Assembly: GCA_964387745.1 (NCBI GenBank)
Contig: CAYLXL010000006.1
Location: 1 to 61,348, forward strand
DNA from: an uncultured Gammaproteobacteria bacterium
GTDB taxonomy: Bacteria > Pseudomonadota > Gammaproteobacteria > JAGOUU01
Length of the DNA: 61,348 nucleotides
Direction: 5' to 3'
Shown: positions 1,897-5,893 of the stretch, piece by piece
Layout of the letters: the number at the start of each line of letters is the position of its first letter
Position numbering within the stretch: the stretch's first letter is position 1
Made by a program: the position numbers and the translations under genes
Notes under the pieces: model-generated
The model's input: only the letters and a program-made list of their open reading frames with translations
Told to the model about the DNA's origin: nothing
Database searches by the model: none

Positions 1897-1947
1897 GTGC
1901 AAAGCACTTCGTTAGACAAGTCGAACTTCGGGCAGCATGCCAGAATT
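1897..1947. repeat. Repeat A, copy 1 (about 51 bp): covers the last 12 codons, the stop and 15 nt of 3' flank of the NTPase gene
   Basis: Near-identical (3 mismatches) to 4329..4379. Confidence 0.9.
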
Positions 1948-3396
1948 ATCTTCCAAAAAATCTACAATATCAACGATGAGATAAAAGTAAGGATTTGTGG
2001 CGACAGAAGACGCAACACCGCTTAAATGAAACAGCACCGCTACTTTTGCAAATCCTTTTGGAGCCTTTAATCTTGATATCTTGTCTTGCATTTCAGAGAT
2101 GATTTCACCACTTATTGCACGTCTTTTAAATTTGAATTCACAAATAAACAAGCTGTTCGTTTTGGTTTGTATTAGATAATCAATTTGGCAACCTTGTTGA
2201 GTTGTGGTTTTGGTTTGTCTATAAGGACCGCTACGTACAATATCCACGGCTGAAATACCTAGTTTTTGATGTAAAAACGAACGATTTTGTAAAAGCAATG
2301 CTTCGAGCTGCAATCCCATATGTGTTTCAAATCCATACATGGTAGATAAGGGCACTTGATCGAATCCACCGTCAGCAATAGCGCCCAGATTTGGTTCAAT
2401 TACTTTCAGATAAAACCTCATATATGGGTCTGAGATTCTATATAAGCTTTGCTTTAGGGGGGCAGCCGTTTTAAAAGACCATAATGATTGCTTAACAACA
2501 AAACCAGCCACAAGGAGATGATCCATTATTTGGCTTAGCGTACCGCTATGAGCAAATCCTATGCTCTGCCTAATTTCTGATAGAGTTCTGGCACCATCTT
2601 TGAGGCTATCTAGGATTTTTTTATATGTAGCACTCTTACCATTAAAGAGATCGTGAAAAATACGATCAAATTCGGTAACAAGTAATCCGCTTTTCTCAAA
2701 GGCGAGCTGTTTGATATTATCATCAGCAGTCATACCAGAATTAAATTGCTCTAAGTACCATGGAACACCGCCAACGATGCTGAGCAACTTGTACATATCG
2801 TAATGAGAAAGCTGCATGCCAAGCGTTCGTAAAAACTCAGCGCTTTCTGGAATCGATAAGGGTTCTAAACTGATAGTTAAATTGATGCGCCCAAAGAATG
2901 CTGTGCTCTTTAGGATATTTTCTTCAATCCAGGTTGATACTGATCCACAAAACACAAGCAACACATGCATCATTTGCTTGTCCCACCAAACTTTAAGTTT
3001 GGGGATAAAGCTAGGGTCTTTTGATCCCATCCACGAAATCTCATCAAGCAAGATGATATCTCCAAGCTTAATATGAAGACTTAAATGCTCAAAGGCATCA
3101 CTCCAATCTAGAAAAGTCATAGGCGGGATTTTGAGCATCAATGCGAGTTGCCGCGCAAAATTATCCCTTTGTTGTTGGGCGGAAATGCTCTCTTCCGGAG
3201 CTAGTCCTGCAAAACTCCAAAATGTTTGAGCATTAGAGATTTTAGCAAATTCCCCTATAAGCCTGCTTTTTCCAATTCTCCTTCGTCCTTTAACGACGAC
3301 AAGGCTGGATGTTTTCTTTTTATACAGAGCTTTTAACTGTTCTAGTTCGGCTTTCCGGCCAATAAATACTGGGTTGGACATTACGACCTCTATCAT
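1912..3396 (-). CDS. ATP-binding protein: Arch_ATPase/AAA-type NTPase + central winged-helix + C-terminal DUF234-like (PD-(D/E)xK-type) domain
   Basis: Walker A GRRRIGKS. Walker B ILLDEISW. wHTH-like TLSEIRQSIGFAHSGTLSQIMDHLLVAGFV. C-terminal QIDYL...LFICEFKF matches a D...ExK nuclease-fold signature. Confidence 0.8.
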   Translation of the reverse strand: MIEVVMSNPVFIGRKAELEQLKALYKKKTSSLVVVKGRRRIGKSRLIGEFAKISNAQTFWSFAGLAPEESISAQQQRDNFARQLALMLKIPPMTFLDWSDAFEHLSLHIKLGDIILLDEISWMGSKDPSFIPKLKVWWDKQMMHVLLVFCGSVSTWIEENILKSTAFFGRINLTISLEPLSIPESAEFLRTLGMQLSHYDMYKLLSIVGGVPWYLEQFNSGMTADDNIKQLAFEKSGLLVTEFDRIFHDLFNGKSATYKKILDSLKDGARTLSEIRQSIGFAHSGTLSQIMDHLLVAGFVVKQSLWSFKTAAPLKQSLYRISDPYMRFYLKVIEPNLGAIADGGFDQVPLSTMYGFETHMGLQLEALLLQNRSFLHQKLGISAVDIVRSGPYRQTKTTTQQGCQIDYLIQTKTNSLFICEFKFKRRAISGEIISEMQDKISRLKAPKGFAKVAVLFHLSGVASSVATNPYFYLIVDIVDFLEDNSGMLPEVRLV

Positions 3397-3417
3397 GCTT
3401 AAGATATACTATATCAT

Positions 3418-3458
3418 ATCTTGAGCATAACATTAAGTCAACAATAAATGCTCAAGAT
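3418..3458. promoter_or_regulatory. Perfect 10-bp inverted repeat atcttgagca-N21-tgctcaagat in the divergent NTPase/CPBP promoter region
   Basis: Read directly. The tcttgag core recurs at 3472 and 5876 inside repeat C. Confidence 0.35.
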
Positions 3459-3461
3459 GAT

Positions 3462-3490
3462 ATTTTTAGCTTCTTGAGATTCGATGATAC
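3462..3490. repeat. Repeat C, copy 1 (atttttagcttcttgagattcgatgatact)
   Basis: Matches 5866..5893 with one substitution and a 2-nt indel. Confidence 0.8.
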
Positions 3491-3551
3491 TACACATCAT
3501 GCTCTCTAGGTTTCATATTTCGATACCTATGGGACATATCATGTGCTATGA

Positions 3552-3571
3552 TTACGTAGCTTAGATCATTC
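3552..3571. repeat. Repeat B, degenerate copy (ttacgtagcttagatcattc), just upstream of the CPBP gene
   Basis: Related to 4304..4328 and 5575..5597 through the shared ttacgta...tta(a)gatcatt core. Confidence 0.55.
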
Positions 3572-3604
3572 ATATGAAAATTATCAGTAAACAGTGAGGG
3601 TCTT

Positions 3605-4328: not shown

Positions 4329-4379
4329 GTGCAAAGCACTTCGTTAGACAAGTCAAACTTCAGGCGGCATGCCAGAATG
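4329..4379 (-). pseudogene. Repeat A, copy 2: decayed relic of the 3' end of a DUF234-NTPase paralogue, starting 2-3 nt after the stop of the second Fic gene
   Basis: In the NTPase frame it reads SGMPPEV-stop-LV-stop against NSGMLPEVRLV-stop in copy 1 (CGA to TGA). Confidence 0.7.
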
Positions 4380-4380
4380 A

Positions 4381-5481
4381 TCATAGAATTTCCTTCACAA
4401 TAACATCGTAAGGCTCGGCCAGCTTATATTTTCTGGCTTTGTTAGAGGCGTCTACTATTTCTAAAAAACCACTCTCAACCCACTTTTTGCACAGCGCAGC
4501 ATTCGTTCTAGGCTGGAAGCCAAATAGATCTCCTATTTGCTTGGCTGTAACAACATCATATCCCTTAAATAATTCCAAGGCTTTGCGTTGTTTCGGATCT
4601 AAGGTGCGCAAAACTTGCGAATGATCTTTTTCGCCGCTCTCATTGCTTGCAATCATTTGTGCTACAACTTTCTCAAAAGCAAAAGCCATCCCTTCCGTAA
4701 AATATTCCACCCAAGGGGTTATATCGCTTTCCGTCCTTCCAAAATAATAATTGTGAGATGGACCAATGCTAATAGCACGATAATAGCCAAGTAAATTTTT
4801 AGCATAATATTCTTCAAGAGAATACAGGCCTTTTAAATCATACCCACCAAGGTGCAAAATTAGGGTTGTCAGTAACCTGCTTGTTCGTCCATTACCGTCA
4901 TAATAGGGATGAATTGTTGCAAACTGATAATGAGCAATACCAGCGACAATAGGGCATGGTATCTCTTCATTTTCTTTGATCCATGACACTAAATTGCGCA
5001 TAAGACCTGGTACATCTTTGGCTTCTGGAGGCATATAGACGATTGTTCCTGTGCCGCTGTCTTTGATAACATTTTGTCCATCTCGGTAAGGTGTTGGTTT
5101 AATGCGCGTTCTTCCATCGCTCATCACCAGAGCATGCAAAGTTTGAATGATTTTTTCGGTAACGGGATGGTTTTGTGAGGCATATTGTTCAAGCTGAGCG
5201 AGTGCAGCATAATAGCCTTTTACTTCATGCTCATCACGTTCTCTACCGGGGAAATGACCTTGAAGCTGAATAACCTCTTTGATCTCATCAGGTTTGAGCT
5301 GATTACCTTCTATCATCGTCGAATAATGCGTAGTATATAGCTTTGCGGTCTCACGCAGGGAGGCGAGAACTGTAGGATTAACAGGCAGTAACGCAACCTT
5401 TTCCTTTGCAGCCTCAATTCTCATCAGACTTTTGGCAATACCAGATGTTATGCTGTAGACGGGTTTAAAGTTTGTCGGCAT
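4381..5481 (-). CDS. Fic/DOC family protein, class II, second paralogue
   Basis: Fic motif HPYYDGNGRTSR (F to Y at the third position). The N-terminal STMIEG fits [ST]xxxE[GN]. C-terminal wHTH-like region. Confidence 0.9.
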   Translation of the reverse strand: MPTNFKPVYSITSGIAKSLMRIEAAKEKVALLPVNPTVLASLRETAKLYTTHYSTMIEGNQLKPDEIKEVIQLQGHFPGRERDEHEVKGYYAALAQLEQYASQNHPVTEKIIQTLHALVMSDGRTRIKPTPYRDGQNVIKDSGTGTIVYMPPEAKDVPGLMRNLVSWIKENEEIPCPIVAGIAHYQFATIHPYYDGNGRTSRLLTTLILHLGGYDLKGLYSLEEYYAKNLLGYYRAISIGPSHNYYFGRTESDITPWVEYFTEGMAFAFEKVVAQMIASNESGEKDHSQVLRTLDPKQRKALELFKGYDVVTAKQIGDLFGFQPRTNAALCKKWVESGFLEIVDASNKARKYKLAEPYDVIVKEIL

Positions 5482-5574
5482 GATATAAGCTCATTATCGG
5501 TTTATCTTATATTGTTTATTATGCAGATAAACGGCGCATAAGTCAAGTATAACATGCCGATAAATTGCGAATCA

Positions 5575-5597
5575 CATAACCTGGTTAAGATCATTAT
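5575..5597. repeat. Repeat B copy (cataacctggttaagatcatta), upstream of the second Fic gene
   Basis: Direct repeat of 4304..4328 with a 1-nt indel. Confidence 0.6.
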
Positions 5598-5698
5598 AAA
5601 ACAATGACGGCAGGCAGCAGCAAAGTTTGGTTTATCAAAACAAGAGTGCAATAGGATGTCGAGTGCTTTCGTATATGAAAAAACTGACGAAATTTATC

Positions 5699-5833
5699 GG
5701 GTCTATGATATTTTTAGTGGGTAATAACTTTAGTAATCACTCAATTTGTTAAAAGTACTATTTACGTAGCAAATAATCCAAGAATGAATTCAGTGGAATA
5801 CCCATGATCCACCCATTCAAATCTTCATAGAAC
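5699..5833. mobile_element. MITE-like element, copy 2, about 135 bp. Left end gggtctatgatatttttagt, right end attcaaatcttcatagaacc.
   Basis: The ends and sub-terminal sequence resemble element 20836..21010. The left terminal repeat is degenerate and the interior has diverged. Confidence 0.5.
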
Positions 5834-5865
5834 CAATTTATCACAAATATCTGAGTAATTATAAT

Positions 5866-5893
5866 GTTTTTAGCTTCTTGAGATTTGATACTG
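5866..5893. repeat. Repeat C, copy 2 (gtttttagcttcttgagatttgatactg)
   Basis: Matches 3462..3490. Confidence 0.8.

Follow-up and report, generated by a model that had tools for sequence, protein, structure and literature searches.

Genomic and defence islands linked to tRNA genes grow by serial accretion of integrative elements. The island at the left end of the DNA analysed here (a stretch of 61,348 nt, hereafter the 61-kb window) resembles them in that it adjoins a copy of a tRNA 3'-end core, with related islands lying at tRNA-Ser genes, in the att-type repeat remnants found between units (e.g. the partial tRNA-Ser copies in the related locus L117), and in its defence- or toxin-type cargo genes. 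It differs in that its units are single genes of 1.2-1.6 kb without an integrase of their own, some insertions lack a second copy of the core, and repeat A (one of three short direct repeats, A, B and C) is flank and not core. The minimal mobile elements of Neisseria and the core defence hotspots of Pseudomonas aeruginosa have kb-long core-gene flanks and undergo homologous recombination between strains. An earlier note on this DNA proposed a comparable arrangement, with different cargo in one slot between conserved flanks; here, however, the flanks measure 29-54 nt, one of them is part of a cargo module, the remaining ones are specific to one organism, and the searches yielded no alternative alleles. 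Integrons combine promoterless cassettes, an attC palindrome with RYYYAAC...GTTRRRY boxes, and IntI. The present locus shares with them short repeats at the 3' ends of different arrayed genes and a promiscuous cargo, but A has a single RYYYAAC-like box (GTCTAAC) with neither a GTTRRRY partner nor an attC-like hairpin, the modules have predicted promoters of their own, and no IntI was seen. An integron cassette/attC identity was rejected on these grounds (one box; no significant fold in the two A copies, z -0.9 and -2.1; 10/12 promoters; no integrase-like ORF in positions 1-9000). Toxin-antitoxin-type cargo is common in the pdif (XerC/XerD) modules of Acinetobacter plasmids. Like these, the gene modules described here have sharp borders, with short palindromic sites as their limits, and recur in varied surroundings; unlike them, the palindromic element ('pal') consists of 13-nt arms and a 13-nt spacer, does not seem to resemble dif and occurs only upstream of modules, and A, B and C are not palindromic. 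Finally, profile matches connect the cargo to SoFic anti-phage defence, a single-gene system, and to PDC-S27, which PADLOC holds as a candidate defence system only; any defence role here is putative.

We put at about 0.5 the probability that the repeats are scars of swapped cargo in a module-built island and not a working recombination site. Positions 1-5900 represent the end of an island built from self-contained single-gene modules, each running from promoter and operators to stop codon, namely two SoFic-like Fic AMPylators, one PDC-S27-like ATPase and a CPBP protease (Table 1). Three of the four modules would belong to a pool moving among very distant, mostly protist-associated bacteria, and elsewhere they form arrays beside tRNA-Ser genes with junction elements (E and 'pal') between them.

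Table 1. Features of the island end and its right-hand neighbour (window coordinates)
Feature	Position	Strand	Remarks
Palindromic junction-element cluster downstream of Fic1	138..381	.	Inverted repeat I10; 'pal' hairpin at 290-331 (nhmmer)
Fic1 module	429..1735	-	Gene 429-1589; Fic_N + Fic + wHTH, SoFic-like
'E' junction element	1799..1882	-	Carries tRNA-Ser 3'-end core TGGCGGAGG (1868-1876)
tRNA-Ser-core flank (CCCTACATTCTTCTAAC ... TTCGGGCAGCATGCCAGAA)	1877..1945	+	Alignment with L040, L096, L007
Repeat A copy 1 (A1)	1897..1950	.	Native flank context
ATPase_2 / PDC-S27-like NTPase ORF	1912..3396	-	Pfam; PADLOC PDC-S27 E 1e-82
ATPase module common to other genomes	1944..3548	-	Leader with 'pal' and C, promoter, operators, native ORF end
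Repeat C copy 1 (C1)	3457..3485	.	Native distal leader of ATPase module
'pal' hairpin (ATGTCCCATAGGT-N13-ACCTAGAGAGCAT)	3494..3546	.	nhmmer family, about 30 loci
Repeat B copy 1 (B1, weak)	3552..3571	.	Within private gap 3549-3630
CPBP / Rce1-like intramembrane protease gene	3605..4288	+	Pfam
38-codon ORF	4268..4384	-	Start in ATGA overlap with Fic2 stop; runs through A2 and B2
Repeat B copy 2 (B2)	4304..4328	.	Abuts A2 directly
Repeat A copy 2 (A2)	4329..4382	.	54-nt partial copy behind Fic2, without core and flank context
Fic2 module	4381..5571	-	Gene 4381-5481, SoFic-like
Repeat B copy 3 (B3)	5575..5597	.	Exactly fills private gap from Fic2 module to 5597-5698 element
Small shared element inside the 'MITE' of the earlier note	5597..5698	.	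Nucleotide identity
Repeat C copy 2 (C2)	5861..5889	.	Orphan ATPase-leader piece, 14 nt from TauE stop codon
TauE/SafE-family gene	5903..6727	-	Pfam

The gene calls made earlier (two Fic proteins, an ATPase_2 NTPase, a CPBP/Rce1-like protease and TauE) were confirmed by Pfam. Fic1, the ATPase and Fic2 each have a predicted 10/12 promoter of their own, located for Fic1 at 1647-1619, with a palindromic operator-like site, and for Fic2 at 5546-5518, with TTATCGGCAT operator-like repeats. Both Fic translations keep the HPFxxGNGR and the inhibitory (S/T)xxxE(G/N) motifs. PADLOC assigned them strongly to SoFic (E 5e-121 and 7e-53), whereas their scores against the NCBIfam equivalog NF046030 (170.8 and 61.6 bits) fall far below its cut-off of 550, so that Fic1 and Fic2 are to be taken as family relatives and not as equivalogs. 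At the nucleotide level, Fic1 is 87-92% identical to L009, L022 and L074 (L-numbers denote related loci), the identity ending at 429-431 and 1733-1735; Fic2 is 88-92% identical to about 40 loci, with sharp ends at its stop codon (4381) and at 5564-5571. For the ATPase module, identity amounts to 80-90% in about 35 loci and is lower in more distant ones; on the leader side it ends at 3459-3467, 3478-3497 or 3518-3548, and on the 3' side it stops at 1944-1954, for more than 30 loci sharply at 1944-1951 and inside A, or at 2015 in two loci. As promoter-to-stop units, the three modules recur at 80-97% identity in bacteria of several assigned phyla, assignments that come partly from metagenome bins, which can misplace mobile DNA; a Holospora scaffold and a complete Ca. 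Megaera chromosome provide support independent of binning. Judged by these identities, the island is a mosaic of self-contained toxin- or defence-type genes shared almost unchanged among very distant host-associated bacteria. The CPBP gene is not promiscuous, its best relative (L161; 72% amino acid and 80% nucleotide identity) matching over the ORF only.

The sequences between modules also recur. The cluster downstream of Fic1 is 92% identical to positions 5535-5708 of L089 and 91% identical to L017, and the segment 1720-1878 is homologous to L074, L031 and L124. The E family yielded 48 matches in 37 sequences, always upstream of a module and co-oriented with it; in L089, 'pal' precedes Fic2 rather than the ATPase. 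Among the 60 tRNAs of the related loci, 37 are tRNA-Ser, 12 of which lie at most 400 nt downstream of a module stop codon. The only tRNA in the window is a tRNA-Trp at 61152; the island runs off the left end, and the target tRNA-Ser gene and an integrase, if they exist, lie outside. Neither the window nor any of three comparable islands examined yielded an integrase. Direct repeats bracket 9 of 117 modules, as compared with 4 of 519 shifted controls, and similar scars were seen as a Fic 3' relic in L056, tRNA-Thr repeats in L133 and a duplicated gene end in L150.

Repeat A proved to be a genuine direct repeat, its copies matching at 50 of 54 nt (blastn E 1e-16) and its 26-nt core occurring exactly twice in the 61-kb window as against 0 expected. 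A1 has the extent claimed for it (the final 12 ATPase codons, the stop codon and 15 nt beyond), and A2, which overlaps the Fic2 stop codon by 2 nt, does read SGMPPEV-stop in the ATPase frame. However, the idea that A2 is a decayed end of the NTPase gene had to be rejected, since none of about 35 loci has A at the native ATPase 3' end. This end reads ...FLEDN-stop or ...FLETEK-stop in over 30 homologous loci and is followed by other genes. The window ATPase has lost this native stop: it ends with FLEDNSGMLPEVRLV-stop, compared with the native FLEDN-stop, GAAGATAATT being joined to CTGGCATGC without a stop codon, so that A1 supplies the 10 codons (SGMLPEVRLV) with which the ORF now closes. Any ATPase-specific nucleotides kept in A2 would be limited to GAT(C)A as against GATAA (4/5 nt), two of which are explained by the Fic2 stop codon.

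The origin of A lies elsewhere. In L040, a real tRNA-Ser(GGA) is followed by CCCTACGTTCTTCGAACTTCGGGCAGCACACCAGAAG, which is the A-type flank; the same flank stands 3' of the E-element core in L096 and L007, and in the alignment A1 is found in that context and A2 without it. Repeat A thus derives from the flank beside a tRNA-Ser attachment core. In the window, a lineage-specific insertion of 33 nt (1894-1926) splits this flank. The two copies of A break off at one and the same point of the flank, immediately after CCAGAA, and 4 of the 5 following nucleotides are common to both. Neither A nor B had a match in the genome, JGI metagenome and viral collections or in 1.9 Mb of related loci, and both repeats appear private to this organism; no terminator was found in A. 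Common dispersed repeats (of the REP/MITE kind) would have spoken against the earlier note; within the 61-kb window, however, A, B and C are confined to the island, in contrast to 'pal' and E, which are families dispersed across genomes.

Repeat C is likewise real (26/29 identity over 29 nt), with a 19-nt exact core of which only two copies occur in the 61-kb window as against 0.08 expected. It is not a neutral element of a frame: each of 23 loci carries a single C, invariably in the leader of the ATPase gene, upstream of the start. C2 is identical to the leaders of L018 over 27/27 nt and of L020 over 26/26 nt, and its outer edge coincides with the canonical short-form module boundary of other genomes. 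Repeat B fared unevenly. B2 and B3 share an exact 15-mer (4313-4327 and 5581-5595), extending to 27/34 with one gap; when the 6-kb region is dinucleotide-shuffled, about 6% of the shuffles contain an exact direct repeat of that length, and B2 and B3 are probably a true repeat. B1, on the other hand, resembles B2 weakly, with a score reached in 14 of 500 shuffles, and the proposal that B flanks the CPBP gene on both sides is not convincing. The element next to B3 is 90% identical to L128 (2032-2133) and 91% identical to L034, where it is repeated. According to the coverage map, the only private stretches are the linkers holding A, B1, B2 and B3, and to the right of TauE there are only short stretches with nucleotide homology to the fetched loci.

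As to the claim that the region holds two copies of one frame, its geometric part seems to stand. On the + strand the order is A1-C1-A2-C2 in the same orientation, with an A-A offset of 2432 nt and a C-C offset of 2404 nt, the C pair diverging by 10% and the A pair by 7%, and the ATPase and Fic2 cargos join A at the same nucleotide, within 5 nt. The readings of A2 as a relic gene end and of C as a neutral frame element are not supported, and homologous exchange is unlikely. No interior homology was detected between 1951-3456 and 4383-5860 at word size 7, which led us to reject a simple tandem duplication. Every junction is spanned by independent contigs from eight public metagenome runs, so that the arrangement is not an assembly artefact. 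Recombinants of the A x A or C x C type were absent from these runs, as were alternative joints, and neither they nor the collections, which include no close relative of the host, showed alternative cargo between the flanks. Since no close host relative was found (none by TauE; RpoB at most 72%), the ancestral state is beyond reconstruction.

The comparisons above establish the module boundaries, the sources of A and C, the lost stop codon and the autonomy and promiscuity of the modules; the order of events, the doubling of the frame and the kind of recombination are inferred from them. In this genome, A and C are the sequences that border the ATPase unit on its two sides. A deletion would have fused the ATPase to the tRNA-Ser-core flank, removing the stop codon and adding 10 codons, and the C...A frame would then have come to be present twice. 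In the TauE-side copy, the ATPase unit would have been replaced by the Fic2 unit and filler, or the reverse in the other copy, presumably through illegitimate recombination at the level of microhomology at the module ends (GATAATT and GATCATT), leaving the 29-nt orphan C2 and the 54-nt A2. At only 5-7 nt, this microhomology may be a chance match. No ATPase residue was detected between C2 and A2 (word size 7); the replacement would thus have been almost exact at both ends, which counts against a frame swap. The near-equal cargo lengths (1506 and 1478 nt) are accounted for by no model.

A Campbell- or att-type insertion seems to us rather unlikely. In this case the 2.38-kb A-to-A segment (B2, CPBP, B1, 'pal', C1 and the ATPase) would have entered beside Fic2 as one piece through recombination within A, A1 and A2 being attL/attR-like and C2 an unrelated older relic of another ATPase module. 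The derivation of A from att-adjacent DNA fits such an event, as do the A2-B2 junction without spacer, which resembles a novel joint, the tRNA-Thr repeats that bracket a Fic gene in L133 at a distance of 2 kb from each other, the gene-end duplications in L150 and L046, and the exact match of C2 over 26-27 nt to leaders of other lineages. The two copies of A agree throughout their first 26 nt, the four differences all falling in the other half, like a core with imperfect arms, but this clustering is not significant (about 0.07, analyst's estimate). Moreover, the incoming private sequence would already have to join the ATPase at the point where the resident copy joins Fic2, the agreement of the C pair with the A pair in order, orientation, spacing and divergence would be a coincidence, and neither the window nor the three comparable islands contain an integrase.

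It is unlikely, too, that A2, C2 and the B copies are independent patches, that is, filler from nearby templates or chance matches made by end-joining or template switching as modules were joined, with never a second frame. In favour of this, no copy is longer than 54 nt or shorter than 15 nt, each coincides exactly with a joint between modules, A lacks both significant structure and an Rfam match, and B alone is near chance level. Yet two independent patches would have had to match both ends of one ATPase unit in order, orientation and spacing (probability below 1%, analyst's estimate), and the outer edge of C2 would not be expected to fall on a module boundary used elsewhere.

The mechanism favoured by the earlier note, homologous exchange between short conserved flanks, we hold to be improbable. 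On this view, a slot flanked by C and A (or by B and A) would have its cargo swapped with population DNA, as in minimal mobile elements and core defence hotspots. Lengths of 29 and 54 nt are near the minimum for RecA-dependent exchange, the same frame does surround different cargo, and module boundaries recur across many genomes. However, C is part of one cargo, the eight runs show a single arrangement, and A and B are absent from the searched genomes, metagenome contigs and related loci; because they are private, a donor with C-Fic2-A would itself need explaining, and exchange cannot by itself create the first such allele. A function of A behind both genes, as a transcription or translation signal or as the beginning of a short peptide that counters Fic, like AS1, a 47-aa antitoxin reported downstream of SoFic (PMC12249575), is very improbable: a 38-codon ORF does run from the ATGA overlap at the Fic2 stop through A2, but it is probably fortuitous, as in relatives this ATG is the start of a downstream partner gene lost here, the peptide frame lacks a start codon in A1, the amino acid is altered by two of the three differences between A1 and A2 in this frame, and no terminator, significant fold or homologue was found.

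Beyond the reading of the repeats as scars of swapped cargo, we tentatively consider a broader one, which at present we think doubtful. A, E and 'pal' may be the terminal arms of undescribed integrase-less mini-islands, each consisting of one gene with its own promoter, which would be mobilised in trans to tRNA-Ser 3' ends and would move defence or toxin genes among protist-associated bacteria of different phyla, the exchange of cargo taking place precisely where the arms end. If this were true, the window would hold two such units that differ in cargo but share one tail arm (A).

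Comparison of the window with itself bore out two of the three direct repeats that the earlier note had described at its left end. Repeat A (copies A1 and A2) aligns at 50 of 54 nucleotides between 1897-1950 and 4329-4382 (blastn E 1e-16), and the 61-kb window contains two copies of its 26-nt core where 0 are expected. Repeat C (C1 and C2) is real but short, with 26/29 identities between 3457-3485 and 5861-5889 and an exact 19-nt core present in two copies only. Repeat B fared less well: B2 and B3 have an exact 15-mer in common (27/34 overall), but roughly 6% of shuffled versions of the 6-kb region also contained such a 15-mer repeat, and B1 is marginal. 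B could not be assigned to a widespread GTGATGTTAAGTACATG element, as B-type patterns were no more frequent than chance predicts across 1.9 Mb of related loci. Exact searches with the A core found no match, either for the 26-mer in the genome collection or for a 21-mer in the JGI metagenomes and IMG/VR; an Rfam search at E up to 1 returned nothing meaningful, and folding of A gave no significant structure. The region 5690-5837, labeled a MITE in the earlier note, shows three matches of 19-21 nt (89-95% identity) to 20839-21019.

Every junction of the island is spanned by independent contigs from eight metagenome runs, and the alternative arrangements for which the earlier note had suggested a search are absent from these contigs; to the extent that contigs can tell, the arrangement is thus genuine and fixed. 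A 615-nt contig from one run (X6) matches window 3349-3592 with one mismatch, and departs from it at 3349 (ATPase codon 16) into 371 nt of unrelated sequence beginning ...ATGGTATGCACTACTTTCGCGGAACTCAGG; it could stem from variation between strains, from an insertion or from a chimeric assembly.

Identity to related loci from other genomes (designated by L numbers) delimits modules, each a single gene from its own promoter to its stop. For the ATPase module, identity breaks sharply at 1944-1951 on one side, while the other side falls into three boundary classes (3459-3467, 3478-3497 or 3518-3548). The Fic2 module is bordered by breaks at 4381, the stop codon of Fic2, and at 5564-5571, and the Fic1 module by sharp breaks at 429-431 and 1733-1735. 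A 10/12 sigma-70-like promoter lies within the borders of each of these three modules. As read from the sequence, repeated operator-like motifs flank each promoter: ATCTTGAGCAT in 3-4 copies in the ATPase leader (3390-3490), TTATCGGCAT in the Fic2 leader (5480-5570), and the palindrome ATTCTCGAAAACGTCAATATTCGAGAAT in the Fic1 leader (1615-1650); that each leader has its own motif suggests module-specific autoregulation. According to the coverage map, only the linkers of the island have no counterpart in 184 loci. PADLOC assigned both Fic proteins to SoFic and the ATPase to candidate PDC-S27; the Fic proteins miss the NCBIfam SoFic equivalog cut-off.

Genes and private linkers at the left end of the window (linkers from the coverage map)
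Feature	Position	Strand	Description or content
Fic1	429-1589	minus	Fic_N, Fic, winged helix
ATPase (NTPase)	1912-3396	minus	ATPase_2
CPBP	3605-4288	plus	CPBP/Rce1-like protease
Fic2	4381-5481	minus	
TauE	5903-6727	minus	
Private linker	1879-1943		18 nt and most of A1
Private linker	3549-3630		B1
Private linker	4288-4375		B2 and most of A2
Private linker	5572-5596		B3
Private linker	5699-5900		

The earlier note had taken A for the end of the NTPase gene, A2 being a decayed copy of it; comparison with relatives reverses this direction. In the relatives, the native ATPase gene ends in ...GATTTTTTGGAAGATAATTAG (FLEDN*) or ...GGAAACTGAGAAATAA (FLETEK*) and is followed by a metallophosphoesterase-like or GNAT-like ORF. 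In the window, the end reads GAAGATAATT joined to CTGGCATGC..., the native stop codon is gone, and the ATPase gains ten codons (SGMLPEVRLV) supplied by A. Since the relatives end without A and the window gene has lost its stop, A is foreign to the ATPase.

A profile search with A gave weak matches in L096 and L040 that continue beyond A1 on its left side. L040 has CCCTACGTTCTTCGAACTTCGGGCAGCACACCAGAAGTGAGG... immediately after a genuine tRNA-Ser(GGA) gene, and beyond this flank lie an IS6-like element and then an ATPase homologue's 3' end. This flank is also present in L096 and L007, where it comes after an 'E' element, a junction element between modules, ending in the tRNA-Ser 3'-terminal core. 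The order in the window is ...CCTCCGCCA, CCCTACATTCTTCTAAC, a 33-nt insertion, TTCGGGCAGCATGCCAGAA and the ATPase. Judged by this alignment, A1 is the right part of the lineage-specific 33-nt insertion together with about 19-25 nt of att-adjacent flank. A1 stands in its native context (tRNA-Ser core at 1868-1876, E element at 1799-1882), and A2, which has no such core or flank context, is thus a partial copy. Both copies stop at one flank point, after ..CCAGAA, where L040 and L096 continue GTGAGG, and beyond it they agree at 4 of the next 5 nucleotides.

TCTAAC and TCGAAC border the insertion (1894-1926, relative to the L040/L096 flank) in the manner of a 6-nt duplication; the insertion includes a small hairpin GTGCAAAGCAC and was found nowhere else. 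The left part of B2, considered as a diverged copy of the start of the flank, was not significant (428/1000 shuffles), and an attC reading of A was discarded (one box only, no hairpin). The IS6-family-like transposase of L040 (2142-2852, terminal repeat GGTTCTGTCGCA), which separates the ATPase homologue from the tRNA-Ser flank, may be one of the vehicles by which such islands are rearranged locally. At 4381-4384 of the window, the downstream partner gene of Fic2 is gone; in most relatives, Fic2 overlaps via ATGA a kinase-like gene starting MTTFHSNIINIYGEKGKAW, and in some another partner gene occupies this position (L082-L104, around locus position 7098).

In each of 23 loci, the C core is present exactly once, and its place is invariably the leader ahead of the ATPase start; as read from the sequence, C includes a degenerate version of the operator-like motif. 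The orphan C2 begins 14 nt from the stop codon of TauE. On the outer side its edge coincides with the short-form boundary of the ATPase module in other genomes, and on the inner side with a third boundary class of that module, as in L021, L022 and L024.

C and A each occur twice, in the same order and orientation, with nearly equal offsets of 2404 and 2432 nt and similar divergence, a pattern that fits two copies of one ATPase unit bounded by C's outer edge and A's far edge. The interiors of the two units are unrelated, and on this ground a simple tandem duplication was rejected. The ATPase and Fic2 meet A at the same nucleotide, which argues that the junction was made once and the cargo, the gene between C and A, exchanged later. 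The doubled C/A frame and the single cargo-A junction together favor a sequence, to which we give a probability of about 50%, in which a deletion would have fused the ATPase to the flank, the C...A frame would have been duplicated, and one cargo would have been swapped by illegitimate recombination at the module ends. The swap may have been aided by the GATAATT/GATCATT similarity, with deletion bias and selection for intact genes acting as filters.

Entry of the ATPase-CPBP segment through A by Campbell-type insertion appears unlikely, and an origin of the repeats as independent filler patches quite unlikely. Two copies of the frame with different cargo, as the earlier note had proposed under cassette replacement, are favored, but not its mechanism, homologous exchange of cargo between conserved flanks. 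Such exchange could not have made the first C-Fic2-A arrangement, and in the collections searched A and B were not encountered outside this organism; we consider this mechanism very unlikely. A functional role for A is most improbable, and reading the 38-aa ORF as an AS1-like antitoxin was judged unlikely. The near-equal length of the ATPase and Fic2 cargos is accounted for by no model, including the favored deletion, duplication and swap.

The 1.9 Mb of related loci contain 60 tRNA genes, of which 37 are tRNA-Ser; the GGA isoacceptor accounts for 25 of the 37, and twelve tRNA-Ser genes lie at most 400 nt downstream of a module stop, in all cases on the opposite strand. L117 carries tandem partial tRNA-Ser copies at 9104 and 9334, ahead of the real gene at 9553. 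The E element (minus strand in the window) gave 48 matches in 37 sequences, always upstream of a co-oriented module; it begins with the tRNA-Ser 3'-end core (TGGCGGAG) and includes CTCCAAACTGGGGTGG, and in several loci a copy of the tRNA's terminator-like flank precedes it. A second junction element, 'pal', is a conserved 43-nt hairpin family (ATGTCCCTTAGGT-N13-ACCTAGAGGACAT) found at 290-331 and 3494-3546 of the window and in about 30 related loci. It lies upstream of the ATPase module in the window and in many genomes, and upstream of Fic2 in L089, and may be an operator or a recombination site; on visual inspection, neither 'pal' nor GTGATGTTAAGT was accepted as a dif/Xer site.

A Fic2 module stands alone in L121 and L134, with a housekeeping gene on one side and tRNA-Ser(GGA) on the other; neither locus has an integrase or a second core there. 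L010 has a comparable island, likewise lacking an integrase, with RhuM, GNAT, ABC-ATPase, PDC-S27-like, Fic and AAA_14-DUF4143 genes. Short direct repeats bracket 9/117 modules versus 4/519 shifted controls, indicating that junction scars are common in these islands; among them are tRNA-derived repeats in L133, gene ends duplicated in L150 and L046, and, in L056, a true Fic 3'-end relic.

The ATPase search yielded 79 loci, the closest with 84-90% nucleotide identity and assigned to Rickettsiales (Ca. Arcanobacter, a complete Ca. Megaera chromosome, Ca. Jidaibacter), Holospora, Chlamydiae, Francisellaceae, Oligoflexales, Dependentiae, Melainabacteria and various Gammaproteobacteria. Fic2 has more than 550 relatives (best 94-97% amino-acid and 88-92% nucleotide identity) over a similar range of taxa, and Fic1 behaves likewise. 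CPBP differs from these modules: its best relative shows 72% identity, confined to the ORF. No record was returned by exact-protein look-ups of the ATPase and Fic2, and those of the rhodanese and CPBP gave nothing beyond short contigs from the same organism. No close relatives of the modules were found among IMG/VR viral contigs, a distant blastn search of PLSDB plasmids with window 1-6000 gave weak matches to distant Fic genes only, and no syntenic relatives were found via TauE. The RpoB of the host (53246-57346) shows at most 72% identity to any species representative searched, its best matches being uncultured Gammaproteobacteria and a Coxiellaceae MAG. The host is a deep-branching, AT-rich (about 37% GC) uncultured gammaproteobacterium, and the runs that contain it came from freshwater, wastewater, activated sludge and, in one case, an unrecorded source.

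The closest known systems are tRNA-linked accretion islands, minimal mobile elements, core defence hotspots, integron cassettes and pdif modules; in a limited literature search, neither these modules nor flank repeats of this type were found to have been described before. Taken by themselves, the repeats are the ordinary scars that island rearrangement leaves, and comparison of relatives explains the apparent ATPase tail, the gene having lost its stop and now reading into an attachment-site flank. Less ordinary are the single-gene units that lack an integrase, share junction elements and lie at tRNA-Ser genes in different phyla. The sharing of SoFic-like and PDC-S27-like genes as promoter-to-stop units, at 80-97% identity, across Rickettsiales, Holosporales, Chlamydiae, Legionellales-like gammaproteobacteria, Dependentiae and others is unusual. 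If the tRNA-Ser clustering and the shared junction elements reflect a dedicated mobilisation route, such a route would account for the movement of defence genes among unrelated intracellular bacteria sharing a host cell.
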